Positions 18,501-46,057 of a stretch of 64,000 nt of DNA are shown one piece after another (position 1 is the first letter of the stretch; each line of letters opens with the position of its first letter). Below the pieces are notes generated by a model. It was given only the letters and a program-made list of their open reading frames with translations, ran no database searches and was not told the DNA's origin. A program made the position numbers and the translations under genes. The stretch comes from an uncultured Gammaproteobacteria bacterium (GTDB taxonomy: Bacteria > Pseudomonadota > Gammaproteobacteria > CAWCPV01). Location of the stretch: positions 192,001 through 256,000 of the forward strand of contig CAWCPV010000007.1 in assembly GCA_963797555.1 (NCBI GenBank), in the 5' to 3' direction.

Positions 18501-19686
18501 GCACCAGGCCGTTCACGCAGCGGGCGCGGCTCGTGTCCGCGGCCCAGCGCTCGGGATCGGGCACGCGCAGGAAGCGCTCGAAGTGGCGCTCGAGGTCTTC
18601 GAACGGCACGTAGCACACGGGGAAATACTTCTGCCCGATGAGATCGTCCAGGGTGCGCCGGGAGTAATCCGCCGCGCTGTCGGCGATGGTCCAGGGGTAA
18701 GTGTGCTCCTTGCTCAGGAAGAAGCTGATGTGCCGGGCTGCGAGCAATTCTTTCAGCCGCTCGCAGGCAGGACTATCCGCGGCACGGTGGTGCGTGCCCA
18801 GGTAGTAGATGTAGCTCCGCTCTTCCAACCGCTGCTTGGTTTCGACCCGAATCCCGTAGTGTCCGTCATAGAGATAAAGCGGCTCCTGCTCGGTCAGCGG
18901 ATTGAACAGGGGATAGAGGGGCACCGGCGCGGCTCCCGGAAAGGTCAGCACTGCGCGCGACTGCTCCAGGGCCTCGATCAGCTCATCCGACAGCGCCTCT
19001 TCGGCCGGATCGCGCAGCCGGGCGCCCCGCAGCCGGCGCAACCTGGCGCGGCCGGTGGCGAGAGCCTCCATACCATCGAGTCCCACCAGCAGGTCGGCGT
19101 CGCCCAGGAAGTCGAAGGCCGCGAGCACCTCATGCAACACGGGCAGGTACTGCTCTAGGTGGCGCGCCGCCTCCTCTTCGTCCGCGAGCCCGCCGTGGGC
19201 GGTTTCGTTCCGCAGCGCCAGGATCGCCTCGAGCGGATTGAGACTGGTGCGCCCGCGCAACCCCACAGGCCGCTCCGCGGTCCGCCCGAGTGCCTTGAGA
19301 GCTTCCCCAAGTCGCGGGAACAGGGGCTCGATGCCGACCCGCGGCAGGTGCCGGCTCAAGGCCCCGGCGAGCGCGATCCAGTCGCTGAAAAACGGCGAGC
19401 GGATCGCCGCTATGGCCCGATTGAGCGCCGAGACGCCCTTCTGGGCGGATGTGTCGATGTCTTCCCGCAGGTACTGACCGACCAGCGGCAGGCACACCAT
19501 CCTGAGCAACTGGTATTCGGTGAAGCAGAGCGCCCAGCGGCGGATCGACGGCGGCCGCTCGTGCTCGTCGAACATGAGCGAGTACGGGTAAGCGACGGGA
19601 TACGGAAAGTCATCAAGGACACGCTGGTTGGGTTCGACCATATCTTGCCTCTCTGAGCGAGTCGCCGCCGGCTTTATGGTATCCAC
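15594..19686 (-). CDS. STAND/NACHT-like NTPase with N-terminal HEPN-like domain and C-terminal 48-aa TPR repeats (several frameshifts in repeats)
   Basis: LRNETAHGG (RxxxxH), Walker A GLAGSGKT, Walker B LILVLDALNE, NPLYL, FLFE; repeats AEAE..YRRAxEI..ALWQAxPEN..IG..LA..L.NLG.LL continue over ORFs 16464-16691, 15910-16566, 16142-16402, 15594-16115. Confidence 0.8.
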
Positions 19687-20017: not shown

Positions 20018-20524
20018 ATGACCAGTCAGAGCAAACGGGCGAACTTCGACGTGACGCCTGAACAGGAGGCGCGCCTCAGCGCCGTCAAAGAACTGCTCCA
20101 GGCGTCCTCGCTGAAGGATGCCGTACTCCGCATGACCAGTGTGATGCTGGTTCTGGCGCGCGAGCTTGCCAGCGGCAAGCATCTGTACCTCGGCGAGCGC
20201 CCCGAGACGGCGGAACGATTGGTGCTGCCGGAGCTCGAAACGGTCGATGGCGGCTGGCGCTGGCTGGTCGCCCGCCCGCACCCCTGGCGCCGGCAGCTCT
20301 GGGTCAAGGGGCGCAAGCTCCTGGCCGCACAGGTCTGGTCGGACATGCGTGCCAACCAACTGACCAGGGAGCAGGTCTCCCTGGACTGGGACCTGCCGCC
20401 GCAGGCCGTGGACGAGATCGTTCGGTACTGCGAGGACAACGCGGCCCTGATCGCGCTCGAGGCAGACGAGGAACGACGCCGGCTCAGCGACGCGGGAGTC
20501 GCGCTTGCGCCTGCTCCTCGATGA
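20018..20524 (+). CDS. DUF433-like antitoxin with N-terminal DNA-binding region
   Basis: WRRQLWVKGRKL.AAQVW..M....TREQV..DWDLP..AVDEIVRY; overlaps DUF5615 gene. Confidence 0.65.
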   Translation: MTSQSKRANFDVTPEQEARLSAVKELLQASSLKDAVLRMTSVMLVLARELASGKHLYLGERPETAERLVLPELETVDGGWRWLVARPHPWRRQLWVKGRKLLAAQVWSDMRANQLTREQVSLDWDLPPQAVDEIVRYCEDNAALIALEADEERRRLSDAGVALAPAPR

Positions 20525-20859
20525 GGACACCCAGGCGCGGCGCCTGGTCGACCTTTTACGGACGCGGGGCCACGACGTGCTGACAGTCGGTGAGGCGGAC
20601 CGGATTGGAGCCTCCGACACCGAGGTTTTGACGCTGGCCGCTGCAACAGATCGTGTCCTGCTCACCCGCAACTGCGCCGACTATCTCGCTCTGCACGAGC
20701 GCGGCACCGCCCACGGCGGCAGTTCTGTGCGTGTACCAGGACTCGGACCTGGGCAAGGCCATGCGCTACGAGGACATCGCCCGTGCCCTGGGGAACCTAG
20801 AAGGTTCCGGGGTCCATCTGGAAGGCATGTTCTTGGCGGTCAACGCATGGATCTATTGA
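20505..20859 (+). CDS. DUF5615 PIN-like toxin (frameshift near 20725)
   Basis: MRLLLDED...GHDV...GASDTEVL..A....RVLLTRNCADY...HGG. Confidence 0.8.
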
Positions 20860-21005
20860 CGCAGGCACCGCACGGTGGATCCAACGACATCCAGCGCATG
20901 GCGTACGCTGGCACGGTCGGCGGTGTCGCCTATCGCACCCCGATTCGCCGCCGTCGCCAGCCCGCGGTATCCCGGAAGGCCAAGCGAGCGTGGCCCGGAA
21001 GCCCG

Positions 21006-21039
21006 CGTAGGGCGGAAGCCCCTTGCGGGCGTTCCGCCG
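21006..21039 (+). repeat. GTAG-family REP (type 2)
   Basis: CGTAGGGCGGAAGCCCCTTGCGGGCGTTCCGCCG; inverted copy at 21618-21651, direct copy at 22712-22745. Confidence 0.85.
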
Positions 21040-21066
21040 AACGCATCGGGCCGATAAGATCGCGCC

Positions 21067-21490
21067 ATGCCCGACTACCGCCGCTATCGCGTGCCCGGCG
21101 GCACCTACTTCTTCACCGTCAATCTCCTGGAGCGCCGCACGGACTTGTTGGTGCGCCATATCGACTCGCTGCGCGAAGCGGTGGCGCGTACTCGGGCGGA
21201 GCGGTCTTTCCACATCGATTGCCAAATGTCCACGCTCGTGTCGCGTTATCTGTGCCGCGGAGCGCCGCTCATGGTGAGTTCCCACGGCCCGCATCGAAGC
21301 GTATCCTGATGGCCTTGATGCGGTTGGGGAAGTCATCATCGCTAGGGGCCGGCTGAGCACACGATGGAGGTGATCGCGGCCGGAGCGAACCATCCAACGT
21401 CCGTTTCTGGGGATATGCCATCCGCGACCAAGACGATTATGCGCGGCACATGGACTACCTTCACTTCAACCCGGTGGAATAAGGCTATGT
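21067..21490 (+). pseudogene. RAYT transposase with internal inversion
   Basis: MPDYRRYRVPGGTYFFTVNLLER...; about 21220-21398 is the reverse complement of the corresponding part of the 22773 copy. Confidence 0.8.
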
Positions 21491-21828: not shown

Positions 21829-22161
21829 CTAAGGGCCGGGTTCTCCCGGGTGCCGCCGCAGCTCCATCGCGTCGTGGAGAAATCGCAGGACCTCGATGTC
21901 GCCTGCGGTGGAGACGCGGTAGACGAGCAGGTGGCGGGCCGGTCGTCCCGCCCGACCGATGTGCAGGGTGCGCACCCCGGGCCGGATCTCGTCGCGTGCC
22001 CGGCTTGTCGGACCCCGGGGATCATCCAAAAGCTCCGCGAACGCGGCGGAGATGAGCGTCCCATAGGACGCGGCCTGGGCCGCTCCCCAACGGCTCGCGG
22101 TGAATCTCAGGGTCGCCCGGATATCCTGCTCCGCCCGGGCGGTCAGGAGCAGGCGGCGCAC
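21829..22161 (-). CDS. parE: ParE/RelE family toxin
   Basis: LTARAEQDI..TLRFT..RWG..QA..Y...RDEIRPGVR...HLLVYR.....EVLRFLHDAMEL. Confidence 0.85.
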   Translation of the reverse strand: MRRLLLTARAEQDIRATLRFTASRWGAAQAASYGTLISAAFAELLDDPRGPTSRARDEIRPGVRTLHIGRAGRPARHLLVYRVSTAGDIEVLRFLHDAMELRRHPGEPGP

Positions 22162-22470
22162 TCAGGTACCGGGAGCCGTCGGAGGCACATCCTCGGCCGG
22201 GTCGGCATCCTCTCGAAGGAGATGCGCCATGACATCCTCGACCCCCTCGAACGCGCGGTAGCGGCCCTCCGTCAGGTCCATCAGCGCTTCGTCGACCGCC
22301 CCACGCAAGGCCTCGAGGCGTGCCTGGTCCTCCAACTCCCGTTGCTCGACGAGCCGCAGCCCCTCGCGCAGGACCTCGCTCGCGTTTTGATAGCGGCCGC
22401 TATCCACCAGGGAGCCGATCAGGGCCTCCTGGTGGTTGGTCAAAACGACATTGCGTGTGGGCATGGTCAC
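22162..22470 (-). CDS. parD: ParD family (CC2985-like) antitoxin
   Basis: TRNVVLT.HQE..I..LV.SGRYQNASEVLREGLRL. Confidence 0.9.
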   Translation of the reverse strand: MTMPTRNVVLTNHQEALIGSLVDSGRYQNASEVLREGLRLVEQRELEDQARLEALRGAVDEALMDLTEGRYRAFEGVEDVMAHLLREDADPAEDVPPTAPGT

Positions 22471-22711
22471 CTCCGATGTTGCGGCTGACGTTCGAGTCCT
22501 GCCGCGGGCGCTTCAAACCGTGCTCGCCCTCCGGCAGAGGAGCGGGGGTGGGGGATACGGTCATGGAGCCCGCGGCCCTGATTGCTCAGGGTCGCGCGAA
22601 GGCCCCGCCCCTTTCGGAACCGAACCGATGGCATGGCATATTATGCCATGACCCAGCGCTGGGCGGCCATCCGGCCCGGTCGCGGCCCCTGCCTGGCCTG
22701 ATTCCAGCCCG

Positions 22712-23301: not shown

Positions 23302-23571
23302 GTGGATCTGGACTATGACCTCTCCAAGAATGCGATAAACCTGCGCAAGCATGGCGTTGACCTAGAAGACGCCAAGCTCGTGCTCTTCGACCCGATGGCA
23401 GTGGTCTGCGAGGAGGCGGATGCCCGGGGAGAGCAGCGCTTTGTCGCGGTGGGCGCAGACACGTGGGGTCGCGTTCTGACGGTCGTTTACATCTATCGCG
23501 AGCCGGACACCATTCGGCTGATCTCGGCTCGGGTGGCTACGAAAAAGGAGCGACAAGCATATGAAGCGTGA
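23302..23571 (+). CDS. brnT: BrnT family toxin
   Basis: D.SKNAINLRKHGV...GEQRFVAVG...VLTVVY.YR...IRLISARVATKKER..YE. Confidence 0.9.
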   Translation: MDLDYDLSKNAINLRKHGVDLEDAKLVLFDPMAVVCEEADARGEQRFVAVGADTWGRVLTVVYIYREPDTIRLISARVATKKERQAYEA

Positions 23572-23821
23572 GTACGACATGACTGGCGCGCGCCGTGCGA
23601 CCGAAGTCGAACACCTGATCCGCCTAAGGGCTGGCAAGACTCGGATTACCATCATGGTGGACGAAGACGTCCTGCAGAGCTTTCGTCAAAGGGCGAAGGA
23701 GCAGGGCGTCGGCTACCAGACCTTAATCAACCTGGCACTGCGCGAGCACCTTGGCCGGCGACCCGTGGATGAGCAGACATTGCGCCGCATCCTCCGGGAG
23801 GAATTGCACCCGACCGCGTAG
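23561..23821 (+). CDS. brnA: BrnA family antitoxin
   Basis: MKREYD...KTRITIMVDEDVL..FR......GYQTLIN.ALR. Confidence 0.9.
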   Translation: MKREYDMTGARRATEVEHLIRLRAGKTRITIMVDEDVLQSFRQRAKEQGVGYQTLINLALREHLGRRPVDEQTLRRILREELHPTA

Positions 23822-23893
23822 GTCGGGTTGCTACAGATCGGCTTTCGCAGATCGACGCTGGTCGACCTTCCACGGAGGCGGGGTAGGCCGCGC

Positions 23894-23923
23894 TTGACAG
23901 GCGCCGGCTGCTGTGACGAAAAT
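23894..23923 (+). promoter_or_regulatory. Putative sigma70 promoter of the riboswitch/Ehr operon
   Basis: TTGACA at 23894 and GAAAAT at 23918, about 15 nt before the aptamer. Confidence 0.55.
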
Positions 23924-23931
23924 TCCCGCGT

Positions 23932-23985
23932 ACCATCGGTGATGGGGTCCACCTAAACCGCCCGCAGGGCTGATGACTCCTACTG
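23932..23985 (+). ncRNA. Fluoride riboswitch (crcB motif)
   Basis: GGTGATGGGGTCCACCTAAACCGCCCGCAGGGCTGATGACTCCTAC: P1 GGTG/CACC, pseudoknot GGGGTC/GACTCC, AAACCG, GCCC/GGGC stem, GCTGATGAC consensus. Confidence 0.93.
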
Positions 23986-24022
23986 GATTCTGAGTTTCTC
24001 AGAGATTCAGAGGAGTCGACCC

Positions 24023-24127
24023 ATGGCCCAGATCCCCGTTGTGCGCTCGCGGCTGCCCGACGCCGGCCGCGGCGAAATTCCGAGCTGCACCGTTTCCTCG
24101 ACCTGCTCGCGCGAGCGCTGCCCGTGA
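24023..24127 (+). CDS. 34-aa leader ORF (or, if an indel is present, the true N-terminus of the HycD-like subunit)
   Basis: ATG 5 nt after AGGAGTC; MAQIPVVRSRLPDAGRGEIPSCTVSSTCSRERCP; stop overlaps next start (GTGA). Confidence 0.45.
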   Translation: MAQIPVVRSRLPDAGRGEIPSCTVSSTCSRERCP

Positions 24128-25071
24128 GCCTGCGGGACATTGCCCTGCAACTCGGGCAAGTGCTGACGGTGCTCGCGTTCTCCCCGCTGCTGCAGGGCTT
24201 CATCCTGCGTTACGAGGAGCGGGTGCAGCGCGCCCGCGGACCGAGCCTGGTCCAGCCCTACCGCGACCTGTGGAAGCTGTTCCACAAGGAGCTGGTGGTG
24301 CCGGAGGGCGCCTCCTTCATTCATTTCGCGGCACCGGTGGTGGCTTTCACCGCCATGCTCGTCGTGCCGCTGCTCATCCCGGTGCTCACCAACTACGCGC
24401 TGCCGCTCTCCGACATGGGCGACATCCTGGGCGGCGGCCTCATCCTCACGCTCGGCGCCTTCTTCGTCACCCTGGCCGGCCTCGACTCGGGAAGCGCGTA
24501 CGGCGGTGTGGGGTCGAGCCGCAGCGTGATGGTGACGATCCTGGCCGAGCCCACGCTGATCCTGGTGCTGGTCGGCATCACGCTGCTCGCCAAAGCCATG
24601 CTGCCGTTCGTGGTCAATCACCTGCTGGTGGCCGATGCCGCCGTGTACTGGAGCCCGGCGCACGTGTTCCTGGCGTGCGCGTTCTTCATCCTGCTGCTGG
24701 CGGAGACGGACCGGCTACCTATCCATTCCAGCACCCACATCGAGGTCTACATGATCGAGGAGGCGCGCATCCTCGAGTACTCGGGGCCGCTGCTGGCGCT
24801 GCTCAAGTGGGCCTCGATGATGAAGCAGTTGATTCTGTACACCATCTTCTGCAACGTGCTGCTGCTGCCCTGGGGGCTATCGGTGAAGGGCACCGCTCTC
24901 GGGGCGGTGGGCGCTGCTGCTGCGCTGCTCGGCAAGGTCGCGCTGGTGGCCTGTGGGGTGATCGTGGTGGAAACGGCACAGTCGCGGCTGCGCTTCTACC
25001 GTTACCAGGAGCCGCTCGCCGCCTCGTTTCTGCTGGCGGCCCTGGCGGTCGTCGCCAACCAACTGCGCTGA
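24124..25071 (+). CDS. HycD/HyfC/NuoH-like membrane subunit (Ehr complex)
   Basis: RVQRARGPSLVQPYRDLWKLFHKE, GSSR, AETDRLP, EYSG motifs. Confidence 0.92.
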   Translation: MSLRDIALQLGQVLTVLAFSPLLQGFILRYEERVQRARGPSLVQPYRDLWKLFHKELVVPEGASFIHFAAPVVAFTAMLVVPLLIPVLTNYALPLSDMGDILGGGLILTLGAFFVTLAGLDSGSAYGGVGSSRSVMVTILAEPTLILVLVGITLLAKAMLPFVVNHLLVADAAVYWSPAHVFLACAFFILLLAETDRLPIHSSTHIEVYMIEEARILEYSGPLLALLKWASMMKQLILYTIFCNVLLLPWGLSVKGTALGAVGAAAALLGKVALVACGVIVVETAQSRLRFYRYQEPLAASFLLAALAVVANQLR

Positions 25072-25075
25072 CGCC

Positions 25076-25756
25076 ATGCCCATCCCGCAGTTCACTCCGC
25101 TCGCCGGCTCGATCTTCAGCCTGCTGGCCATCGGCAGCCTGCTGCTCGCCTTCGTGATGCTGGGCTCGCGCTGGTTGCGCGACTATCTGTTCGCTTTCGG
25201 GCTGCAGTCCTGGCTGATCGCGCTGCTCTCGGCCACGGTCGCCTACCACGCACACTTTCCTGAGCTGTATCTAATTGCGGTGTTCACGGCCCTGTTCCGC
25301 GGCCTGCTGTTGCCTTATCTCATCCTGCGCATCCTGCGCCGAGTCCAGGCCCACCGAGAATTGCACGTCATCCTGCAAGCCTCCACCAGCCTGGTGGTCG
25401 GGGCGCTGGCGGTCGTCTTCGCCCTGGCCGTCTCCCACCGGATCTCCGCGGCCCTCGGGCTGACCGGGAACATAGCGGTGCTCGCGCTCACCGTGACATT
25501 CGCGATGGAGCTCATCGGCTTTCTCATGCTCGCGGTGCGCCACGAGGCGGTCAGTCACGTCCTGGGGCTGCTGGTCCTCGAGAACGGCATCTTCCTGGGC
25601 TCCCAGGTGCTGATCCCCGGCATGCCGCTGCTCATCGAGCTGGTGATCCTGTTCGACTTGCTGGTGGCCGTGGCTTGTTTCGGTATCTTGGCTCGCTACC
25701 TGGTGGAGCGGGCCGGCACCACCAGCAGCCTGCAGCTTCGGAGGCTGGTGGGATGA
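25076..25756 (+). CDS. hyfE: HyfE-like membrane subunit
   Basis: Hydrophobic; GLLVLENGIFL...GMPLLIEL..LFD. Confidence 0.88.
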   Translation: MPIPQFTPLAGSIFSLLAIGSLLLAFVMLGSRWLRDYLFAFGLQSWLIALLSATVAYHAHFPELYLIAVFTALFRGLLLPYLILRILRRVQAHRELHVILQASTSLVVGALAVVFALAVSHRISAALGLTGNIAVLALTVTFAMELIGFLMLAVRHEAVSHVLGLLVLENGIFLGSQVLIPGMPLLIELVILFDLLVAVACFGILARYLVERAGTTSSLQLRRLVG

Positions 25757-27216
25757 CCGGCGTGTGGCTCGCCGCCGTGGTCCTGCTGGCGCCGCTCGCC
25801 GCCGTGGTGCTGTGCGCCGCCGTTCGACGGGCGCAGGCCGCGGAGCGCGTCAATCTGGCCGCATCCGGGGTGACCCTGGCGGCGGCGCTGCCCCTGCCGT
25901 TCGTCGCCGCCGGTCACAGCACCGTGGCGCTGGACGGTTATCTGCTGGTGGACGCCCTGGGGGCCTGGGTGGTGCTGTGCGCGGCGCTGGTCTACCTGCT
26001 CGCCTCGATCTATGCGGTGGGTTACATGCGCCTGCTGGGCGAGCCACGGCGCCTGCCGCGCTTCTATGCGCTGTTCGCCGGGTTCGCCTTCACGACGCTG
26101 GCCGCGCCGCTGATGAACAATGCCGGCGTGTACTGGATCGCCGTGGAGCTGACCACCCTGGTCAGCACCTTCCTGGTCGGTTTCGAGCGCGCGCCGGAAA
26201 GCATCGAGGCGGCCTGGAAGTACATCATCGTGGTGTCTGCGGGGATCAGCATGGCTTTGCTCGGCACCATGCTGTTCTACTGGGCCGGCACGGCCGCGCT
26301 GGGACCCACCTACGACATGACGTGGCAGGCGCTGGCCGCCGCGGCGCCGGCCATGAATACGAAGCTCGTGACGCTCGCCTTCCTGCTGGCCCTGGTCGGC
26401 TACGGGACCAAGGCGGGGCTCGCGCCCATGCACACCTGGCTGCCCGACGCGCACAGCGAGGGTCCGGCGCCGGTCTCGGCGCTGCTCTCGGGCGCGCTGC
26501 TGAATACCGCACTGGTGGGCATCGTGCGGCTGCTGGCGGTCGTCGAGCAGGCGGGAGCCGGGGAGCTGCCACGCATCGCGCTCATGGTGCTGGGGGCGGC
26601 CTCGCTCGCGGTCGGCACGCTGTTCATCGTGCGCCAGAACGGGGTCAAGCGTCTGATGGCCTATTCCAGCGTGGAGCACATGGGGATCACGGCGCTCGGC
26701 TTCGCCTTCGGCGGCGCGCTGGGGGTGGCGGGCGCGCTCTACCACATGCTGAACCATGCGCTCAACAAGTCGCTCATGTTCTTCGGCGCGGGTGTCGCGA
26801 TGCGGGCATACGGCACCAAGGAAATGACCGGCATCCGCCGGTTCGGTGTGCGTTTCCCGCTGACCGGGGCGCTGTGGCTCGCGGGCGCACTGGCCATCAC
26901 CGGGGCGCCGCCCTTCGGCCTGTTCCTGTCCGAGCTGACCGTGCTGCGCGCAGGGCTTGCGCCGGGCACCACCTGGGCCGCGGTGGTCATGCTGGTGCTG
27001 CTAGTGGTGGTGTTCGCGGGCTTCCTCAACCACTTCCGGGTGATGTACTACACCGAGGCGGATGCCGAGCCGCAGGCCCCGGGCGTGGCGGGCCCCTGGT
27101 GCGTGACGCCGATGGCGCTCGCTCTGGCGCCCCTGCTGCTGCTGGGGCTGTGGTGGCCGGTGGGCTTCACCCGGCTGTTCGGGCAGGTCTCGGCAGGTCT
27201 GGGAGCTGGGCCGTGA
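25753..27216 (+). CDS. hyfF: HyfF-like antiporter-type (proton-translocating) subunit
   Basis: WIAVELTT, EAAWKY, GYGTKAGLAPMHTWLPDAHSEGP, KRLMAYSSVEHMG, NHALNKS, GAPPFGLFLSE. Confidence 0.92.
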   Translation: MTGVWLAAVVLLAPLAAVVLCAAVRRAQAAERVNLAASGVTLAAALPLPFVAAGHSTVALDGYLLVDALGAWVVLCAALVYLLASIYAVGYMRLLGEPRRLPRFYALFAGFAFTTLAAPLMNNAGVYWIAVELTTLVSTFLVGFERAPESIEAAWKYIIVVSAGISMALLGTMLFYWAGTAALGPTYDMTWQALAAAAPAMNTKLVTLAFLLALVGYGTKAGLAPMHTWLPDAHSEGPAPVSALLSGALLNTALVGIVRLLAVVEQAGAGELPRIALMVLGAASLAVGTLFIVRQNGVKRLMAYSSVEHMGITALGFAFGGALGVAGALYHMLNHALNKSLMFFGAGVAMRAYGTKEMTGIRRFGVRFPLTGALWLAGALAITGAPPFGLFLSELTVLRAGLAPGTTWAAVVMLVLLVVVFAGFLNHFRVMYYTEADAEPQAPGVAGPWCVTPMALALAPLLLLGLWWPVGFTRLFGQVSAGLGAGP

Positions 27217-28699
27217 CCCCGGCAGCCGAAAGGCGCCTCGCCCCCGACGAGCTGGAGGCGGCATGCCGCGATCTGCTCGCCGATGGCGGCCGGATGCAGA
27301 TGGCCTGGGGCTGGTTCCCCGAACCCGAGGCGGCCGAGCTGTGCTACCTGGCGGCGCGCCGGCCGCGCGAGCCTTTCGAGCTGTGGCGCTCGCGGCCGCA
27401 GCACGGGCTCGTGCCCAGCCTGGCGCACACCGCGCCGCTGCTCGGCTGGTACGAGCGCGAGATCACCGACCTCTGCGGGGTCCGCTTCGAGAACCATCCG
27501 GAGCCCCGCCCCCTGGTGCTGCACGAGGGCGCCGCGCCGGTCTGTCCGCCGCTGGACCCCCGCTGCCCGGCGGCTGTGCCGATGCCCTACACGCCCACAG
27601 CCCCCGCGCTGCTGGAGGTGCAGGGCCCCGACGTGCAGGTGCTGCCCTTCGGTCCGGTGCGGGCCGACGTGGTGGAGTCGGCCCAGTTCCTGTTCTGCTA
27701 CATCGGCGAGCAGATCCTGCACTACCGGCCGCGGCTGTTCTTCAAGCACCGCGGCCTGGAGAAGCTTTTCGAGGGCCGCGACCCGCACGCGGCGGTGGTG
27801 CTCGCGGAGCGCGTCTCCGGGGTGGGCAGCGTCGCCCATGCGCTCGGCTACTGCCAGGCCGTCGAGGCCGCCGCCGGCGCCGAGGTTCCGCGGCGCGCGC
27901 GGCTCCTCCGGGTGCTGCTGGCCGAACTGGAGCGGCTGTACAACCACTTGCACTACCTCGGGCACCTGGCCGACACCACCACGCTCAAGGTGGGGCAGGC
28001 CGAGGGCAAGCTGCTCGAGGAGCGGCTCAAGCAAATCAACGGCCGGCTCACCGGGAGCCGGTTCCTGCGCGGCCTGCTCGCTCCGGGCGGTCTGCGCCGC
28101 GACCTCGCGCCGGGCCATGATCTCGCCGGGATCTGGGCGCGGTGCGCCGCGAGGCGGCCGCGTATGCCGCAGAGCTGGAGCGCACCGCGAGCTACCGCGA
28201 CCGTCTGCACGACACCGGCGTGCTGGATGCGCGCACCGCCTTCGACCAGGGCGCCACGGGGCCGGTGGAGCGGGCATCCGGCCTCGACCGCGATCTGCGC
28301 CGCGACCACCCTTACGCGGCTTACGAGGAGATGGACCTGCGGGTGCCGGTGGAGAGCGCGGGCGACGCCCATGCCCGCGCCCGGGTGCGGGTGCGGGAGA
28401 TCGAGGCGGGCTTCGAGGCTATCCTCCGGCTGCTGCCGCGCCTGCCCGACGGCCCGGTGCGGGTCCCAGTGACGGTGCCGGGCGGCGCCGAGGGACTGGG
28501 CTGGGCCGAATCGCCTCGGGGCTCTCTCTACTACGCGGTGCACGCCGGAGCCGACGGACGGCTCGCGCGGGTGAAGATCAAGTCGCCGTCCTTCTCGAAC
28601 TGGCGAGCGTTCCCCTACACCGTGCACGACACCAACATGATGGACTACGCCATCAACGAAGCGAGCTTCGGGCTGACCGTCGCCGGGTGCGACCGGTGA
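27213..28699 (+). CDS. HycE/HyfG-like large subunit lacking Ni-Fe ligands (EhrL; frameshift near 28138)
   Basis: WYEREITDL.G..F..HP, GPVRADVVES, KHRGLEK, ERVSGVGSVAH (no CxxC), ELERLYNHL, ESPRG, C-terminus DYAINEASFGLTVAGCDR (no DPCxxC). Confidence 0.9.
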
Positions 28700-28708
28700 G
28701 GCGCTGAC

Positions 28709-29512
28709 ATGTCCAAGTGGACCTGGTTCGGGCTGTCGAGGGGAACCGCCACCACCGCCTGGCCGGCGCGGGACGGCGAAGACGGCCAGATCGGCGTGCT
28801 CGGCATGCCGCGCTTCGATCCGCAGCGCTGCGAGGCAGAATGCCGCGCCTGTGTCGAGGTCTGTCCCACCGGGGCGCTGGCTTTCCCGCCGAACGGCGCG
28901 ACGGTCCCGATCGAGGTGGATTACGGCCGCTGCGTGGTCTGCCAGCTCTGCACCGAGCACTGCCCGAGCGGTGCGCTCGCGCCCTCCGGAGATTGGGCCT
29001 TCGCGGTGCGCGAGCGCGCCGATCTGCGCTGGCGGGAGGCCCTCGACGCGCCGTCCGGGCGGCGCCTCGGCAGCCGCATCGCTGCGCTCCGACGCAGCCT
29101 GCACGTGCGCCACGTGGACGCGGGCTCCTGCAACGGCTGCGAGTCGGAGTTGCAGGCGCTCAACAACCCTTTCTACAACCTGCACCGCCTGGGGGTGTTC
29201 TTTACCGCCTCGCCGCGTTTCGCCGATCTGCTGCTGGTGACCGGTCCCGTGACCTACGCCATGCGCGGACCGCTGGCGGCCGCCTACGAGGCCATGCCGG
29301 AGCCGCGGTTGGTGATGGCCATGGGGACCTGCGCGGTTTCCGGCGGGGTCGCCGGCGGCGGCTACAGCACGGGTACCGGGCTCGACGGGGTGCTGCCCGT
29401 GGACCTGTGGCTTCCGGGCTGCCCGCCCAACCCGGCGGCGGTAATCGAGGGGCTGCTGGTGCTGCTGGAGCGCCGCCCCCAGCGCGTGCGAGGAGGTCGC
29501 CTTGAGCCCTGA
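28709..29512 (+). CDS. Fused 2[4Fe-4S] ferredoxin (HycF-like) and NuoB/HycG-like small subunit
   Basis: C...CRACVEVCP, CVVCQLCTEHCP, then DAGSCNGCE, ASPRFAD, GTCA, PGCPP. Confidence 0.92.
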   Translation: MSKWTWFGLSRGTATTAWPARDGEDGQIGVLGMPRFDPQRCEAECRACVEVCPTGALAFPPNGATVPIEVDYGRCVVCQLCTEHCPSGALAPSGDWAFAVRERADLRWREALDAPSGRRLGSRIAALRRSLHVRHVDAGSCNGCESELQALNNPFYNLHRLGVFFTASPRFADLLLVTGPVTYAMRGPLAAAYEAMPEPRLVMAMGTCAVSGGVAGGGYSTGTGLDGVLPVDLWLPGCPPNPAAVIEGLLVLLERRPQRVRGGRLEP

Positions 29513-31462
29513 GCCGGTTGGAGTGGCGGTGCTCGCCTGGTGCCTCGCCGGTGTGCTCGCCGCCGCCGGGCGAGGCCTGCGGCTCGCGCGGGCGCTGCTC
29601 GCGCTGGGGGCGCTGGCCGTCATCGCGGGCGCGCTGGTCACGCTCCCCGGGGAGGTGCCGGTCCTCGGATTGGGCGTCACCCTCACCGCACCCGTGACCT
29701 TCCGTCTCTCCCCCGAGGCCCTGTGGCTCGCCGGCTTTGGCCTGGCGCCTGCCGCCCTGGCGGTGGCCTTGGGCTCGCCCGCCGGGCGCGGCGGCTGGAT
29801 CGCAGGGGCGGCGCTCACCCTGCTCGGCAGCCTCGGGGTGTTCGGCCTGCAGGAGGGGGCGGCCTTTCTCATCGCCTGGGAGCTCATGAGTCTGGGCGGG
29901 GCGCTGATGATCCTGTCCGAGCGGAGCAGCAGGGGCGGCTCACCGGTGCTGTTCATGCTCGCCCTGCTGGAGCTCGGGGCCGTCGCGCTGGTGGCGGCCA
30001 TCCTGCTGCTGGGCGCTCGGAAGGGCCTCGACTTCGCCGGCTTCACGGCCGCCGGCGCCGCCCTGGGACCGGGGATGCACTACCTCGTCGGCATGCTCCT
30101 CATCGTCGGATTCGGCGCCAAGCTCGGGCTGCTTCCCTTCTACGAGTGGTTCCCGGGCGCCTACGGGGCGGGGAGCGGCGCCACCGGGGCGGTGCTCTCG
30201 GGGGTGGTGCTGAACGCCGCCTACTTCGCGCTCGCCCGCGGCCTGACGCAGTGGCTGCCCGGGGACGGCGGCGCCGGGTTCGACCTGGCGCTCACCCTGC
30301 TTGCGTTGGCCGTGCTCACCGCCGTGTTCGCCATCCTGTACGCCTTCCAGGAGGAAGACTGGCGCGAGCTGCTCAGCCTCTCCACCGCCGAGAATGCCGG
30401 CATCGCCGCCGCGGCGTTGGCGGCGGCACTGCTGTTCCGCCACGCCGGGCTGAACAATCTGGCCGGGCTCGGGTGGCTGGTGGCCCTGCTCCATCTCGCC
30501 GGCCACGCGCTCGCCAAGGGGGCCTTGTTCCTGACCGCCGACGGCGCACGCGCGGTCACCGGGACCTATCGGCTCGTTCCGCAGGGCCTGCTGCGCCGAA
30601 GCGGCTGGCCGCTCGGGGTCGGCGCGCTGTTCGCGGTCATGAGCTTGGCCGCCATGCCGCCGCAGGCCGGTTTCGTCAGCGAGTGGTACGTGTTCCAGAC
30701 CGTTTTCCAGGGCTTCAACCTGCCGGGGCTGGCGGGGCCGCTGGCGCTGGCCATCGCCGGGGCCGGCCTGGCCCTCACCGCGGCCGTGGCGCTCGCCACC
30801 TTCGTCAAGTTGTTCGGCATCGGACTGCTCGGCGACGGAGCTCATCGGGGTCCGGGCATCCCCGCGCGTTACGGCGCCGCGGTGGGGCTGTTGGGTCTTG
30901 CCGTGCTCGCGACCGCGGTGGGCATGCCCTGGTGGCTCACGGCCCTCGACCCGGCCGTGCAGGGACTGCTGCCCGGGGCCAGCGCGGCTGCGTTGCGGGA
31001 AGGCTGGCTGCTGGTGCCGCTCACCAGCCACTTCGCCTTCATCTCGCCCACCCTCCTGGTCATCGCCGGACCGCTGCTGGCTCTGCTGCCCCTCTCGCTG
31101 TGGCGGCTCTCCCGCGGCGAGTGGCGCCGCACGCCTGCCTGGTACGGCGGCCTGCCGCGGCTGTCCGAGCGCGTCGCCACCACGCCGCTCGCCTTCTCCA
31201 ACGCCATGCGCACCTTCTACAGCATGGTCTACCGGCCGACCCTGGACGTGCACCACGAGCACGTGGGTACGGCCTACTTCTTGAGACGGCTGCGCTTCGA
31301 CCACCAGGTAGCTCCGATCTTCGGACCGCTGCTGTTCGGCCCGGCGGTGCGCCTGACTTATCGCCTGGCGGCCCACCTGCAGGCGCTGCAGTCCGGAAAC
31401 CTGAACTTCTACCTGGCCCTGATCGGGCGCTGGTGCTGATTCTGCTGGTGCCGTTGCTGTAA
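29502..31462 (+). CDS. hyfB: HyfB-like antiporter-type subunit (frameshift near 31430)
   Basis: FLIAWELMS, GFGAKLGLLPF..WFP, STAENAG, HALAKGALF, MPPQAGFVSEW, TFVKLFGI, LQSGNLNFY. Confidence 0.88.
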
Positions 31463-31540
31463 TGTCGCCGGCCGTGGCGTTCGGTTGCCCTAGGCATCGG
31501 TTGGAGGCTTTGAGTAGCGAAGGCTTCGAGGCAGCGTGAC

Positions 31541-31861
31541 ATGGACAAGGACATGACTCTGGTGCGGATCTACCTGCGCGAGGCGGACCCCGGACACCGC
31601 AAGGCCTTGCTCGAGGAGATCCTGTCCGTGCTGCACGACGAGCACCGAGTCCATGGGGTAACGGTGTTCCGGGGCATCGCGGGCTTCGGCGATCACGGCG
31701 ACATCCACACGGCCGACTTGCTGCACCTCAGCGTCCATCTGCCGCTGGTGGTGGAGTTCTTCGACGAGCCGGACGTTGTCGCGGCCGCCATCGAGGCGCT
31801 GGGCGACCTGGTGCCGCCCGACCACCTGACGCAGTGGACCGTGCGCTGCCGCTGCGGATGA
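31541..31861 (+). CDS. DUF190 (PII-like) protein
   Basis: VRIYLRE.D, GVTVFRGIAGFG, LSVHLPLVVEFFD. Confidence 0.9.
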   Translation: MDKDMTLVRIYLREADPGHRKALLEEILSVLHDEHRVHGVTVFRGIAGFGDHGDIHTADLLHLSVHLPLVVEFFDEPDVVAAAIEALGDLVPPDHLTQWTVRCRCG

Positions 31862-31945
31862 TCTCGGGCGGGCGTCGCCCCGAGCATTGCGGGTGCGGCC
31901 GCCTTTCGTGCGTGGTGAAGAGGCTTGTAGAATCGGAGGCGGAAA

Positions 31946-32917
31946 GTGACGAAGACCGGAGGAGAAACCGCACGCACCGGACGCGGCTCCCCGGAGCCCT
32001 CTGGCGACTGCGGTCACAGGCCATCGCCGGCAGGTCGGCCCCGCGGGAACGGCATCGATGTCGATGCCTGCTACCGCTATATCCTGGGCCGTCAGACCAT
32101 CGACGGCGGATTTTGCTTCTATGTTTACCACGACTGGGGGGTGGAGGAACCGAACGCGCCCGACACCTGTGCCGCCGTCGCGAGCCTCGGCCTGCTCGAC
32201 CGGCCGGTGCCGAGACGGGCGTCCGTGGCGGACTGGCTCAAGGCCCAGCAGGACTCCCGCGGCGGCTATCCGACCCTCACCATTGCCCATGCGACGCTTA
32301 CGGCATTGCGCCTCCTGGGGGAAGCGCCGCCGCAAGACCCGAGCCGTTTCTTGGAGAAAATGGGCGGGATCTACGGACTCACGGATGCCGCCGGGCGGGA
32401 GGCATCCGGTTGGCTCCACAACGCACTGCGCTGCGTCGAGCTATGGCGGGACTATGACCTGTCCCTGAGCGATCGAGTGCGCACGCAGGTGGGCACCGGA
32501 CTCAGCCGCCTGCGGCAGGACGACGGCGGTTACGGCGCGCCTGGGGCGAGCCTGCCCGATACCGCCGCCGCTGTGGCGCTCGCTGCCGCGCTCGACCTGC
32601 CCGTCGACCCCGCGGCGCTCGCTTACGTACGGCGATGCGAGGCGTTTCCCTACGGCTTCAATATCACCCCGTCGGCCTCGTCCAGCGGCCTGGAAAGCCA
32701 CCATGCGGGCATGCGGGTGCTGCGTCACTTCGGCGCCGGCCCGCGCCAACCCGTGGTGGTGCAGGACTATGTCGCGAGCTGCCAGACTCGGCGCGGCGGC
32801 TTTGGGCGCGTGCCGGGCGCGGTGCCCCGGCTCGACGACAGTCTGCGTGCGCTGGAAGTTCTGTCCATGCTGGCGCAGGCGCGATCCGCGAGCCCAGAGG
32901 CCTCCGGGGACCCTTGA
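31946..32917 (+). CDS. Prenyltransferase/squalene oxidase repeat protein (GGTase-beta-like)
   Basis: Repeats RQTIDGGF, QQDSRGGY, RQDDGGYG, CQTRRGGFG; true start may be downstream of 31946. Confidence 0.75.
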   Translation: MTKTGGETARTGRGSPEPSGDCGHRPSPAGRPRGNGIDVDACYRYILGRQTIDGGFCFYVYHDWGVEEPNAPDTCAAVASLGLLDRPVPRRASVADWLKAQQDSRGGYPTLTIAHATLTALRLLGEAPPQDPSRFLEKMGGIYGLTDAAGREASGWLHNALRCVELWRDYDLSLSDRVRTQVGTGLSRLRQDDGGYGAPGASLPDTAAAVALAAALDLPVDPAALAYVRRCEAFPYGFNITPSASSSGLESHHAGMRVLRHFGAGPRQPVVVQDYVASCQTRRGGFGRVPGAVPRLDDSLRALEVLSMLAQARSASPEASGDP

Positions 32918-32991
32918 TAGGTGCCCAAGCTACCGGCACAGGCGTCGGTCCGGCGAGCGGATCGAGACCGACCGGGCATGGGGGTAAAAAG

Positions 32992-33462
32992 ATGCTGGAG
33001 ATCGCCATTCCGGGGTTCGGTGGGCTGGGTCTCGAACACCTGGTGACGGACTATACGGGTACGCTGTCCGCGGACGGCGCACTTCTGCCGGGCGTCAGGG
33101 AACTGCTGAACGCCGTCGCTGCAGACCTCCAAGTGCACGTCGTGACGGCCGACACCTTCGGCATGGCGCGGTCCGAGCTCGAAGGGGTCCACTGCGTGGT
33201 ACGCATCCTGGACGGAGGAGCCGAGGACGCCCAGAAGGAGGATTACGTCCGCGCGCTCGGCGCCGAACGGGTGGCGGCGCTCGGAAACGGCAACAACGAC
33301 CGGCGCATGCTGCGGGCTGCACGCCTCGGCATCGCCGTATGTCAAATCGAGGGATGCTCCATCGACGCTCTGACGGCAGCGGACATCGTCGTGACATCTC
33401 CCGTCCATGCCCTCGAGTTGCTGCTGCACCCAGGCCGCCTCAAGGCGACCCTGCGATTCTGA
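32992..33462 (+). CDS. HAD-family hydrolase (soluble P-type ATPase-like, COG4087)
   Basis: MLEIAIPG, DYTGTL..DG, TADTFG, GNGNND..ML..A.LGI, LL.P.RLKATLR. Confidence 0.88.
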   Translation: MLEIAIPGFGGLGLEHLVTDYTGTLSADGALLPGVRELLNAVAADLQVHVVTADTFGMARSELEGVHCVVRILDGGAEDAQKEDYVRALGAERVAALGNGNNDRRMLRAARLGIAVCQIEGCSIDALTAADIVVTSPVHALELLLHPGRLKATLRF

Positions 33463-34234
33463 GCCGCAGCATGCGAAGCACCCAGTACGCACCGAGCGCA
33501 GCCAGGAGATGCTTGACCGTATGCCCGCTCAGCTCCCCGGTCAGGCTGTACAAGGCGGCGTCGAAGTGCTCTGCCGGCTTCGACAGGGCGTAGAACAGCA
33601 GCACAACGAACAGGTCGGAGCTGCGTGTGAACCGGCCGGGGTAAGCCACGAGCACAACGGGTATCAGGATGGCGGGGAGGAACTGGACCAATGCGTACGG
33701 CCTGAGGTCGCCGGCGCCGAAATGCTCGGAAACATCCCAGTAGAGAACGCTGCCCAAGCCCAGCGCGAGCAGCCAAGGAAGCGCTCGCCGGGCGCGGGGG
33801 TCGAGGTGCTCCGTGAGGATGGCCGAAAACAGCCCCATGAAGGCGACGGTCATGGGCAAACGGTCCCAGACCAGGGTGTCGTTCGTGGGGTGCAGGTGAT
33901 ACCAGGCCGATCCGATGCCTGTGAGTGCAACGCCGACAAAGAACGCGATATAAGCCGCGAGAGCCGGTGTGCGCAGTCCCTCCCACTTGCGGCGAACGAC
34001 GGCAACCAGACCCGCAAGCCCGACCAGCAGAAACGGGACGTTCGATACCACGTTCCAAAAATTCGGGATGCCCCACAGCCTCCGCTGATCGATGAATTGG
34101 TGATAAGCGGCATCCTGGGGGACGGGCGCCACGAAGAGCAGGGTGGAGAGGCCGGCGAGGCAAAGCGCCGTCAATATCCATGGCCTCGCCGTCCGGAGCC
34201 ACGGCGGTGGCCAGGGGCGGGCGGTGGCGCTCAA
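33440..34234 (-). CDS. Ceramidase-like integral membrane protein
   Basis: QD.AYHQF.D.R...GIPNFWNVVSN.PF, GSAWYHL.P, WDRLPM, SGHTVKH. Confidence 0.85.
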   Translation of the reverse strand: MSATARPWPPPWLRTARPWILTALCLAGLSTLLFVAPVPQDAAYHQFIDQRRLWGIPNFWNVVSNVPFLLVGLAGLVAVVRRKWEGLRTPALAAYIAFFVGVALTGIGSAWYHLHPTNDTLVWDRLPMTVAFMGLFSAILTEHLDPRARRALPWLLALGLGSVLYWDVSEHFGAGDLRPYALVQFLPAILIPVVLVAYPGRFTRSSDLFVVLLFYALSKPAEHFDAALYSLTGELSGHTVKHLLAALGAYWVLRMLRLRIAGSP

Positions 34235-36894: not shown

Positions 36895-36969
36895 GCCCTA
36901 TGACCGCGCTAACCGGCTGCGGAAGGAGCCCAGCGACTGACGCAGTCCGAGCTACGCACCTTGTTCGGC
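36895..36969 (-). repeat. Degenerate attC-like site
   Basis: Minus strand GCCGAAC AAGGT GCGTAGCTCGGACTGCG...CGCAGCCGGTTAGCGC GGTC ATAGGGC; paired arms with extrahelical bases. Confidence 0.6.
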
Positions 36970-37218
36970 ATTACCTTCATGCGCTGCGGGCTTCAATCCA
37001 GATACCAGCGTTTCCGGCGCGATATCTTGTTCATGGGGCCATGTCACTGCACCAAAGACTGTGTCGACTTGCGAGAAGTAACTCTTATCTCGAAGCTCCC
37101 TGAATACGCCGTGATTCAGATACGGCTTGAGGTCAAAGACGCCCTTCCGACCATCTACCAACTCAACGAAAATCTCATAGTCGTCTAATGGGCGAACTGT
37201 CTTCACGTCCCAATACAT
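36952..37218 (-). CDS. DUF2442 protein (antitoxin-like)
   Basis: V.PLDDY.I.V.L.DG.KG.FDLKPYL..GVF..L.D..YF......GAVTWP.EQDIAPETL. Confidence 0.88.
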   Translation of the reverse strand: MYWDVKTVRPLDDYEIFVELVDGRKGVFDLKPYLNHGVFRELRDKSYFSQVDTVFGAVTWPHEQDIAPETLVSGLKPAAHEGNAEQGA

Positions 37219-37225
37219 AGCAACC

Positions 37226-38115
37226 TCACAATGGATCAATTTTGTACGGGTTTTCACCCGCCACAGCCAGGTCCCAATCGGCCATGAGTTCATCTCGACA
37301 CAATTCAATCCATGCTTGCACCAAACGTAGCTGCTTACGCGGTAACTCCCCGAGGTAAGCCCCCGGCTTTGCCGGGGACTCACCGAGGTTTGACCTATAC
37401 GACGGTCGTCGTGAATCTCCAATCTCCGCCAAGAGAAGGAGACGCACGATGAAAGAGTACCAGAGTCTGATCCACACGAAGTGGGACTGTAAGTACCATG
37501 TGATATTCATCCCGAAAGCGCAGGAAGAAGCGGATCTTCGGGGCGCTGCGCCGCCACCTGGGACAGATCTTCCACGAGTTGGCGGGCCACAAGGACTCGA
37601 AGGTGGTTGAAGGCCACCTGATGTCCGATCACGTGCACATGTGCCTGAGCATACCGCCGAAGTATGCGGTGTCCAACGTCGTGGGGTATATCAAAGGCAA
37701 GAGCGCCATCCAGATCGCCCGGAGGTTCGCAGGCCGGCAGCGGAACTTCACCGGAGAGAACTTTTGGGCGCGCGGGTACTTTGTGTCCACGGTCGGCTTA
37801 GATGAGGCGATGGTCAGGGCCTACATCCGGAACCAAGAGCAAGAGGACGAGCGCTACGATCAGCTAACGCTGGGGACATAGGTCCAGCCGCCTTGGGCGG
37901 CTCCCGGTGTTATGGCGCCTTTGAGGCGCTCACCCAATAAGCCCCCGGCTTTGCCGGGGGTGAGTTAACTCTCCGGCTAAAACTTCACCATCATCAATCC
38001 GAATCGATGCCTCGAATCCTGAGTACCGCGCATGAACGTGCGGCGCAGCGTGATGCTGGTTATCCAGAAAGTACCGCCGGATGATGATCCCGTAGAACAT
38101 TGAAATTGAATGCCT
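37226..38115 (-). pseudogene. DUF4160 toxin-like gene interrupted by IS200
   Basis: ISMFYGIII...DNQHHAAPHVHARY...DDGEVLAGE|LPRKQLRLVQAWIE...LMADW...IDPL; frame restored by removing 37347-37969. Confidence 0.85.
37347..37969 (+). mobile_element. tnpA: IS200 family element with tnpA (about 37449-37881, one frameshift)
   Basis: HTKWDCKYHVIF, DHVHMC (HUH), GYIKGKS, FWARGYFVSTVG, YIRNQ; subterminal hairpins; TAAC at left flank and right end. Confidence 0.92.
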
Positions 38116-38179
38116 TCAACCGTCTGTTTCCTCGCCACCCATCCTTTGACACGCTGCTATTTTCGTTCAGTCCCGCAGT

Positions 38180-45409: not shown

Positions 45410-46057
45410 GGCTCTTTCGGCAATTGTGTGGGTGGTGGTAGTCAAGTAGCATCTGTTCTGACCGGTCGCTTATCACAGCATCTTGTGGTTGGGGTGGTGG
45501 GCGAGAGGCCCTCGCGTGGGGCCGCTCCGCAGGACTCGTCCATAAATCCACAGGCCGTCATCCAAGGGGGGGAGCACCGTGCAGCCCACGCATCTGTTTA
45601 GCACGGCACTGGGCCTGACGGCGCCTTGGGAAGTCACCGAGGTGCGGTTCGACCCCGAGGCTGGGCGCATCGACCTCGATGTGGCGTTTGCCAAGGGCAG
45701 CCGCTTTGCCTGCCCGGCCTGCGGAGTGCAAGGCCAGGCGGTGCACGACACCCGGGAGCGCAGTTGGCAGCACCTGAGCTTCTTTAAGTCACGGGCATAC
45801 CTGCACGCGCATCTGCCGCGAGTGCGCTGCGAGGCCTGCGGCAAGACGACCCAGGTGGAACCGCCGTGGGCGCGCGCCCACAGTGGCTTCACGGCGCTGA
45901 TGGAGGCGCTGGTGGTCACGCTGTGCCAGGCCATGCCGGTGGCGACCGTGGCTCGGCACCTGGGTGTGGGCGATGAGCGCCTGTGGGGGGTGCTCGATCG
46001 CTAGCTCAGAACGGATGCTACTCGACCACCACGATCCACACAATTACCGAAAGAGCC
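45410..46057 (+). mobile_element. ISL3 family element, internally deleted
   Basis: Ends GGCTCTTTCGGCAATTG / CAATTACCGAAAGAGCC; ORF 45579-46004 keeps CPACG and PRVRCEACG Zn fingers but no DDE. Confidence 0.85.

Follow-up and report, generated by a model that had tools for sequence, protein, structure and literature searches.

A fluoride riboswitch precedes an operon for a nickel-free, hydrogenase-like Ehr complex in an uncultured gammaproteobacterium

Gene content of the locus

In this work we analysed a 64,000-nucleotide (nt) stretch of DNA from an uncultured Gammaproteobacteria bacterium (assembly GCA_963797555.1, contig CAWCPV010000007.1, positions 192,001 to 256,000; this whole stretch is called the window), in which a fluoride riboswitch aptamer is followed by nine co-directional genes on the plus strand. 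Six of the nine, named A to F here, encode a complex of the Ehr type that resembles complex I and the group 4 hydrogenases. The features of the operon, including a short leader open reading frame (ORF), are listed below in window coordinates.

23894-23923, plus strand: sigma-70-like promoter, TTGACA-18 nt-GAAAAT, 10 of 12 matches
23929-23989, plus strand: fluoride riboswitch aptamer, RF01734, 59 bits (gathering cut-off 34), E 8e-14
23975-24017, plus strand: alternative hairpin, predicted translational expression platform, aptamer 3' strand GACUCCU with AGGAGUC
24023-24127, plus strand: leader ORF of 34 codons, its TGA overlapping the GTG start of gene A (GTGA)
24124-25071, plus strand: A, NuoH/HycD-like membrane subunit, PF00146, E 8e-33
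25076-25756, plus strand: B, HyfE-like membrane subunit, NF008556 (hydrogenase 4 membrane subunit), E 9e-14, below the curated cut-off
25753-27216, plus strand: C, HyfF/NuoN-like antiporter-like subunit, PF00361, E 8e-50, ATGA overlap with B
27213-28699, plus strand: D, NuoC-NuoD/HycE-like large subunit without nickel-iron ligands, PF00374 and PF00329, frame broken at 28125-28127
28709-29512, plus strand: E, fusion of a 2x[4Fe-4S] ferredoxin (HycF/NuoI-like) with a NuoB/HycG-like small subunit, PF01058 (E 2e-28) and Fer4 families
29502-31439, plus strand: F, HyfB/NuoL-like antiporter-like subunit, PF00361, E 2e-23
31541-31861, plus strand: G, small DUF190 protein (COG1993/UPF0166), PF02641, E 6e-24
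31946-32917, plus strand: H, protein with a prenyltransferase alpha-alpha-toroid fold, PF00432, E 8e-11, partial match
32992-33462, plus strand: I, 156-residue protein with a HAD/P-type-ATPase-like phosphatase fold, TIGR01494, E 1e-7, below cut-off

An initial annotation, made from the letters of the window, had described a consensus fluoride aptamer behind a TTGACA promoter, and both features stood up to dedicated searches. When the RF01734 check was run, the match at 23929-23989 (59 bits) covered the full Rfam covariance model, positions 1-64 of 64; it is the sole Rfam family match in the 64-kb window, and RF01734 was found only this once in the whole 5.35-Mb, 20-contig genome. Our own covariance model, R1, scores the same aptamer at 68.7 bits. 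The promoter-like site, with its 10 of 12 matches, was seen once against 0.1 expected from shuffled sequences, and it ends 6 nt 5' of the aptamer.

The predicted minimum-free-energy fold of the leader (-44.2 kcal/mol, z -3.6, with 0 of 200 shuffles equally stable) pairs the aptamer strand GACUCCU with AGGAGUC, the ribosome site of the 34-codon ORF. By promoter position and predicted fold, the aptamer lies in a 5' leader next to a platform that competes with it, as expected of a riboswitch. An intrinsic terminator was also considered as the expression platform and was rejected, as no terminator-like site was seen in 23700-24300. The distance from the aptamer to gene A is 135 nt, and it is spanned largely by the leader ORF, which the initial annotation had not noted. 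The same design, counted as a ribosome site and a start codon 8-55 nt past the aptamer that open an ORF of 12 or more codons ending at the start of A, recurs in 54 of the 60 related loci counted, where shuffled leaders would give 1.7; the exact 4-nt ATGA/GTGA overlap between leader ORF and A is seen in 42 of these 60. The count omits seven loci in which the motif missed the start of A, four with a gene between aptamer and A, and those whose stretch has too little upstream DNA to contain an aptamer. This suggests that translational control at the leader ORF may be handed on to gene A by coupling, and our further guess is that leader translation could guard the long transcript against Rho. Such a hand-over would be a small addition to the ways in which translational riboswitches govern long operons.

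All nine genes that the initial annotation had placed in this co-directional row, from the hycD-like gene to the HAD gene, are present, with the start of the latter at 32992 instead of 32635. The start of A (VSLRDIALQ...) agrees with its relatives. Genes C and F match the hydrogenase 4 subunit F models (E 2e-108) and subunit B (E 2e-72), respectively, in both cases below cut-off, and as two PF00361 proteins they bear out the two antiporter-like subunits that had been proposed. Genes A to F overlap or sit no more than 10 nt apart, and G, H and I are preceded by gaps of 101, 84 and 74 nt, in which no promoter-like site was seen. The single terminator-like site in 31300-33700 falls within gene H and does not exceed the number that chance would give; the row is closed by a convergent ceramidase-like gene on the opposite strand. 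Among the three tail genes, the DUF190 protein G has the structural relatives TM0021 (1o51) and PH1503 (2dcl), H falls in Atlas clusters named prenyltransferase (score 0.98), and the translation of I carries DYTGT and GNGNND motifs together with weak P-type ATPase matches.

Pairing of riboswitch and operon in related loci

The large subunit has more than 2212 relatives at E <=1e-20 among 8000 candidates scored, and 531 relatives were found among 573 matching stretches of one-genome-per-species contigs. The best 80 of the 531 were examined as genome loci, and an independent set of 80 as metagenome loci, with a covariance model built from 19 aptamers. Where at least 3280 nt of upstream DNA are available, a same-strand aptamer is always present (70 of 70 genome loci, 44 of 44 metagenome loci); the other 10 and 36 loci are too short upstream. 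The aptamer lies 2752-3989 nt before the large subunit in the genome loci and 2752-4050 nt across both sets (114/114 evaluable). Own-model scores were weak at two loci (L026, 24.6 bits; L029, 25.8 bits), and at what are likely the same sites the Rfam model gave 42.6 bits (genome G049) and 29.6 bits (G052), the latter below cut-off. G030, whose genome belongs to the same class, has an ortholog with 57% identity that is accompanied by RF01734 at 48.5 bits.

By their record titles the loci span Gammaproteobacteria, Alphaproteobacteria and Acidobacteria, and the gene order A to F is kept in the genome loci that were laid out and in all 40 complete metagenome loci. Culturable carriers are Mesorhizobium montanum MSK 1335 (L045), Acidicapsa dinghuensis 4GSKX (L097), Acidobacteriaceae bacterium TAA 166 (L068) and Varunaivibrio sulfuroxidans (P0084). 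The genomes of four loci (L049, L051, L052 and L063, in G072, G074, G075 and G086) are flagged as unpublished; when these are left out the aptamer count becomes 67 of 67, and the synteny and leader counts include them.

The large subunit has lost its nickel ligands

When P0003, the closest intact homolog of gene D, was aligned to Escherichia coli HycE (7z0s_E, E 1e-49), the motif RVCGICGFAH fell opposite RVSGVGSVTH, with both N-terminal nickel cysteines replaced. The HMMER alignment ended before the C-terminal motif, and the C-terminal half was read from the sequence itself: the last 60 residues of the window protein contain one cysteine (…AGCDR), and a C-terminal CxxC is therefore impossible. 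In Aquifex NuoCD, RMDYISAI aligns with RVSGVGSV, so that a glycine stands in place of the tyrosine, which we take to be the quinone ligand of complex I. The nickel-ligand and tyrosine replacements are invariant across 17 aligned large-subunit relatives. D also matches MbhL (6cfw_L) with an E value of 4e-37.

The electron-transfer parts and the membrane arm retain their characteristic residues. The small subunit, which matches HycG (7z0s, E 4e-34) and also aligns with MbhJ, keeps four cluster cysteines (SCNGCE, GTCAVSGG, PGCPP), and the N-terminal half of fusion protein E has two Fer4 motifs. Subunit C aligned to MbhH (6cfw_H) shows conserved charged Glu, Lys, His and Lys motifs, presumably the ion path of antiporter-like subunits. 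No NuoE/F/G-like genes for an NADH module are found in the operon. Likewise, no formate dehydrogenase, HycB-type or maturation gene was found among the ORFs scanned, which were those of at least 110-140 residues from 9 kb to the window end, with 1-9 kb and the rest of the genome outside the scan.

Judged from its sequence, the operon encodes an Ehr-type nickel-free complex with a NuoH-like, a HyfE-like and two antiporter-like subunits, as the initial annotation had proposed from the lost nickel ligands and the lack of formate dehydrogenase and maturation genes, and the complex is predicted to be neither a hydrogenase nor a formate hydrogenlyase. The assignment to Ehr follows from group 4 large-subunit homology, the absence of CxxC motifs and the complex-I-like membrane subunits alongside. 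Passages in PMC10284858 and PMC4758237 describe Ehr complexes as devoid of CxxC motifs and of unknown function. The present clade shares with Ehr complexes in general the group-4-like large subunit without CxxC and the complex-I-like membrane subunits, and it is set apart from them by six genes that keep one order, by the fusion of HycF with HycG and by its fluoride riboswitch.

Several better-studied systems are alike in parts. The closest solved relatives of the large and small subunits are those of E. coli Hyc (7z0s) and hydrogenase-4 Hyf, with which the operon also shares HyfB-, HyfE- and HyfF-like membrane subunits; however, the operon has no nickel-iron site and no HycB/FdhF partner, its order (C-E-F-G-[F/H+I fusion]-B type) differs, and it is under riboswitch control. 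Pyrococcus furiosus MBH (6cfw) and MBS (6u8y) are alike in a ferredoxin-type input module, a NuoB-like cluster and an Mrp-like arm, whereas the complex encoded here has far fewer membrane subunits, a bacterial host and fluoride control. MBS provides a precedent, being a relative without nickel in which redox chemistry remains coupled to the movement of ions. Complex I (Nuo) is matched by homologs of NuoH, NuoL/M/N, NuoB, NuoC-D and NuoI, but the operon lacks the NADH module, and the quinone-site tyrosine aligns with glycine.

Formate hydrogen lyase genes behind a fluoride riboswitch were reportedly listed by Baker et al. in 2012. The initial annotation had regarded the system as a candidate undescribed one, which cannot be upheld, since a passage of Weinberg et al. 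(2010) lists 'genes encoding formate hydrogen lyase' after the crcB motif (PMC2864571). In the corresponding passages of the review by Stockbridge and Wackett (2024), the genes are still treated as a true formate hydrogen lyase and explained as a shift to fermentation (PMC11139923). The arrangement in the window is the same as in this published class, namely a fluoride aptamer before genes annotated as formate hydrogenlyase; the difference is that the annotation was taken at face value there, whereas here the ligands are gone, no formate dehydrogenase occurs among the scanned window ORFs, and the pairing with the switch is invariable. In a literature search (supplements excluded) we met neither a test of these genes under fluoride nor any remark on their lost nickel ligands. 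We concluded that the operon is a genuine and ordinary member of a widespread family which is in print but misnamed and uncharacterised, and that the listed 'formate hydrogen lyase' genes, as shown here, are nickel-free Ehr complexes. The function of Ehr has been open since its naming, and the link to fluoride makes its role testable.

Fluoride exporters in this genome and its relatives

The exporter CrcB (PF02537) gave no match in a six-frame search of the whole genome, and a control found CrcB in 11 of 14 known genomes. There is no CLC gene in the window; the four CLC matches of the genome lie on other contigs, and none of the four (0/4) has the CLC-F signature set, given in PMC11139923, in the passage concerned, as GNNLI/GMGLI, GREGT/V and GEVTP. 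Instead, GSGIP/GHGVP, GREGP and GxFxP occur in three of these genes, and the fourth carries DREGP. Completeness of the genome is 84.59%, and rpoB and rpoC models had no match in the whole assembly; because even these genes are missing, the absence of an exporter is weak evidence.

The earlier statement that no exporter accompanies the operon stands for the window and for this 84.6%-complete genome, but it does not describe the system, as CrcB is found in 56 of 79 related genomes (27/40 plus 30/40, one genome being counted twice) and in 52 of 75 when the unpublished genomes are left out. The survey that the initial annotation had called for thus has a double result: the riboswitch is kept in every evaluable locus (70/70 and 44/44), and most carriers do have CrcB (56/79). 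The gene crcB lies directly 3' of hyfB in 25 of 66 evaluable loci, with L083 a 26th case by layout. In 67 complete A-F genome loci, DUF190 is found in 41 and crcB in 33, with both in 31, DUF190 only in 10, crcB only in 2 and neither in 24; the window is of the DUF190-only type. The 40 complete metagenome loci gave 17 with DUF190, 19 with crcB, 14 with both, 3 with DUF190 only, 5 with crcB only and 18 with neither. The CrcB counts in relatives indicate that the Ehr complex is usually a companion of Fluc and not a replacement for it.

A minority of the related genomes show no known exporter. Nine contiguous genomes without CrcB had 40 CLC matches, and none of the 30 places read has CLC-F motifs; no CLC-F-like ORF was found in the 80 genome loci. 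In three genomes (G000, which is this genome, G054 and G065) the sole genomic RF01734 match is the one before the Ehr operon.

Some loci show a variant layout in which the aptamer is followed by crcB and then by the six Ehr genes (L057 and L089, 6012-6879; L085, 5784-6300; L170, 5951-6485), and in L057 and L089 a DUF190-like ORF stands besides crcB ahead of the Ehr genes. CrcB with an in-frame stop was seen at G061:C1:2754042-2754380 (L038), G049:C30:354254-354556 and G117:C4:821949-822239, the G061 case being the crcB that closes the Ehr operon.

The frame break in gene D

The initial annotation had treated the large subunit as a plain gene, which needs correction: D is read in one frame to about 28125 and in another to 28699, the frame shifting near 28125-28127. 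The closest intact homolog, P0003 (495 residues, 94% identical), has one more nt in the run GCCCGGG, where the window has GCCGGG. An extra C or G at this site is present in four of four covering contigs from two marsh-metagenome runs, with two contigs per run; these contigs are relatives of about 90% identity, none from the same strain. No RNA run was among the matching sequencing runs listed, and the best DNA runs share <=0.30 of the words. A programmed frameshift was set aside, because in the relatives one additional base keeps the frame simply open.

If the frameshift is real, the local copy of the operon is dead. It would then be a decaying remnant, set in an island that comprises insertion sequences and toxin-antitoxin pairs, which we regard as somewhat unlikely for this operon. 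The 1-nt deletion relative to P0003 and to all four contigs speaks for decay, as do transposases and toxin-antitoxin pairs on both sides and the lack of a crcB partner. However, the deletion sits in a C/G run, the other eight genes are all open, and single-base frame breaks occur elsewhere in the assembly, for example in a TPR gene spread over three frames. Reads could not decide between a real deletion and an assembly error, because no same-strain contig spans the site, and given the TPR gene in the same assembly the break in D leans toward an assembly error.

The TPR-repeat matches lie in three overlapping frames at 15597-16889 (minus strand), with 16633-19686 (minus strand), beside a 1018-residue ORF of no family, and the region probably represents a single large gene whose frame is broken several times, either as a pseudogene or through assembly errors. 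The uvrA gene of the assembly is open, its match sitting in a 1928-residue frame with two UvrA-like halves.

Proposed role under fluoride stress

We consider it very probable that the operon is a fluoride-response system. As to what the Ehr complex does, our leading proposal, with a probability of roughly 45%, is a redox-driven cation pump that would hold cytoplasmic pH and membrane potential under fluoride stress; it is suggested by the fluoride switch, the retained clusters, the two PF00361 subunits and the link to crcB. According to passages of PMC11139923, Fluc is a channel driven by the membrane potential, entry of hydrogen fluoride (HF) acidifies the cytoplasm, and Na+/H+ antiporters rank second in frequency among the classes behind the fluoride riboswitch.

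In the proposed mechanism the sigma-70-type promoter would start the transcript at the aptamer. Without fluoride, the aptamer 3' strand would pair with the ribosome site of the leader ORF; with fluoride the aptamer would fold and free this site, and ribosomes would read the leader and pass via the GTGA stop/start overlap to gene A. The complex may then be fed electrons by a low-potential donor such as ferredoxin, and their energy would drive H+ or Na+ out of the cell. The outward pumping could clear the protons brought in by HF and sustain the inside-negative membrane potential that drives F- exit via Fluc channels, from which the cell would benefit under fluoride. If correct, this is relevant to the energy cost of fluoride export in cells and to the engineering of fluoride tolerance for organofluorine work.

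Several findings weigh against such a pump. The pocket of the large subunit resembles that of neither hydrogenases nor complex I, and therefore offers no model for the chemistry that would drive pumping. A pure helper of Fluc fits poorly with the 23 of 79 related genomes, plus this one, that show no CrcB, unless their assemblies are incomplete. The frame of the large subunit is broken in the window. The related loci are kin, so that 114/114 reflects conservation and not independent events, and the tail genes G to I are set off from A to F by 74-101 nt gaps, which makes their co-transcription with A to F putative.

Another role that we weighed, and consider improbable, is that of a fluoride-insensitive bypass for an inhibited redox or energy step such as ferredoxin re-oxidation, with pumping secondary. 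A three-cluster electron-transfer chain is retained; enzymes inhibited by fluoride, for instance enolase and pyrophosphatase, are often duplicated in fluoride regulons according to a passage of PMC11139923; and riboswitch-led neighbours include dihydroxy-acid dehydratase and metallophosphoesterases, which are iron-sulfur or metal enzymes. Yet the large subunit has no recognisable acceptor site, the quinone tyrosine being a glycine and the nickel cysteines being gone, no fluoride-sensitive counterpart is evident, and crcB and DUF190, which often share the operon, point to membrane and ion physiology.

The CrcB-less genomes raise the question of whether the Ehr clade could be a self-sufficient fluoride-defence machine that clears HF/F- or the proton load even without Fluc or CLC-F. 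We hold this to be quite unlikely; if true, it would be the first physiological role for Ehr and a third kind of fluoride-resistance device. In its narrower form the complex itself would remove fluoride, as a redox-energised exporter of F- or HF equivalents in the absence of Fluc/CLC-F, and this we judge to be distinctly unlikely. It would account for the lack of CrcB and of CLC-F signatures (0/4) in this genome, for the 23 of 79 relatives without CrcB, for the 0 of 30 CLC places read (of 40) with CLC-F motifs in nine of the CrcB-less genomes, and for G000, G054 and G065, in which the only RF01734 match precedes the Ehr operon. Antiporter-like subunits with conserved Glu/Lys motifs are known as cation or proton paths, however, not as anion paths, and subunit C carries these motifs. 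The crcB gene co-encoded in about 40% of the loci would also be redundant, and the CrcB-less assemblies are of uncertain completeness, this one being without rpoB and rpoC.

Doubtful to a similar extent is a complex that lowers the pH gradient, as a primary Na+ pump or an Mrp-like exchanger, while the potential is kept and less fluoride is trapped in the cell. The membrane arm is Mrp/Mbh-like, and such a device needs no fluoride channel and would suit the CrcB-less genomes. The prominence of Na+/H+ antiporters among the riboswitch-linked classes is in its favour, as is the finding that acidification cuts the fluoride load in adapted yeast (both in passages of PMC11139923). However, sequence cannot tell Na+ from H+, and the reading overlaps with the redox-driven cation pump.

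A true formate hydrogenlyase or hydrogenase serving a fermentative shift under fluoride, which is how passages of PMC11139923 take these genes, with source annotations naming the large subunit 'formate hydrogenlyase subunit 5' and E. coli HycE as its best solved relative (7z0s_E, E 1e-49), is contradicted by the missing nickel ligands (RVCGICGFAH to RVSGVGSVTH, one Cys in the C-terminal 60 residues, the same replacements in 17/17 aligned relatives) and by the ORFs scanned in the window, which include neither formate dehydrogenase nor HycB nor any maturation gene, and can be dismissed as extremely improbable.

Tail genes and surroundings

Homologs of the tail genes also occur near other Ehr loci. 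Those of H near loci L083, L055 and L219 each stand behind their own fluoride aptamer; those of I are found in L083, L150 and L170, with a same-strand aptamer about 0.85 kb (L150) and about 4.3 kb (L170) upstream; and DUF190 with its own aptamer lies next to the Ehr operon in eight cases. The window therefore strings several fluoride-regulon modules after one switch. HAD-type genes are among the riboswitch-linked classes named in a passage of PMC11139923. A metagenome scan with the prenyltransferase-fold protein H returned no relative.

Some related genomes have many fluoride aptamers, for example 17 in G073 and 12 in G071, and also G060 and G077. The aptamers are clustered within tens of kb in what may be called fluoride islands, as around loci L050, L048, L037, L028, L200, L208 and L213. 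The first genes after such aptamers include DUF190 (8), CrcB (4), metallophosphoesterase (4), MutS-domain-V (4) and dihydroxy-acid dehydratase (2); other aptamer-led genes encode HEAT-repeat, USP, NUDIX, dynamin-like GTPase, MFS, outer-membrane efflux, cyclopropane-fatty-acid synthase and glutamine synthetase proteins.

The neighbouring genes on both sides of the operon include the following.

13013-14368, 37504-37878, 38088-39254, 41448-42359, 42523-43812 (minus strand), 44140-45101 (minus strand), 45546-46001: transposase/integrase genes
21832-22512 (minus strand), 23302-23821 (plus strand), 20451-21353 (plus strand), 36955-37690 (minus strand): toxin-antitoxin pairs and DUF5615

The seven transposase/integrase genes that flank the operon are Tn5-like, IS200, DDE_3, IS5-like, ISAZ013, IS3-type and ISL3, and they place the operon in a mobile, island-like region. 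The best named relatives of the large subunit are Gammaproteobacteria, and the genome's own comparison relatives are given only as 'same class'. There are hints, then, of a lateral acquisition of the operon. Beside the operon are ParE/ParD, BrnT/BrnA (ending 70 nt 5' of the promoter), a DUF5615 protein and DUF2442/DUF4160. Further downstream, at 52968-56445 (plus strand), an ORF with a SIR2_2 domain overlaps a 1075-residue ORF with NACHT and HEAT repeats; the architecture resembles that of a defence gene, and a frame break may have split a single gene into these two ORFs.

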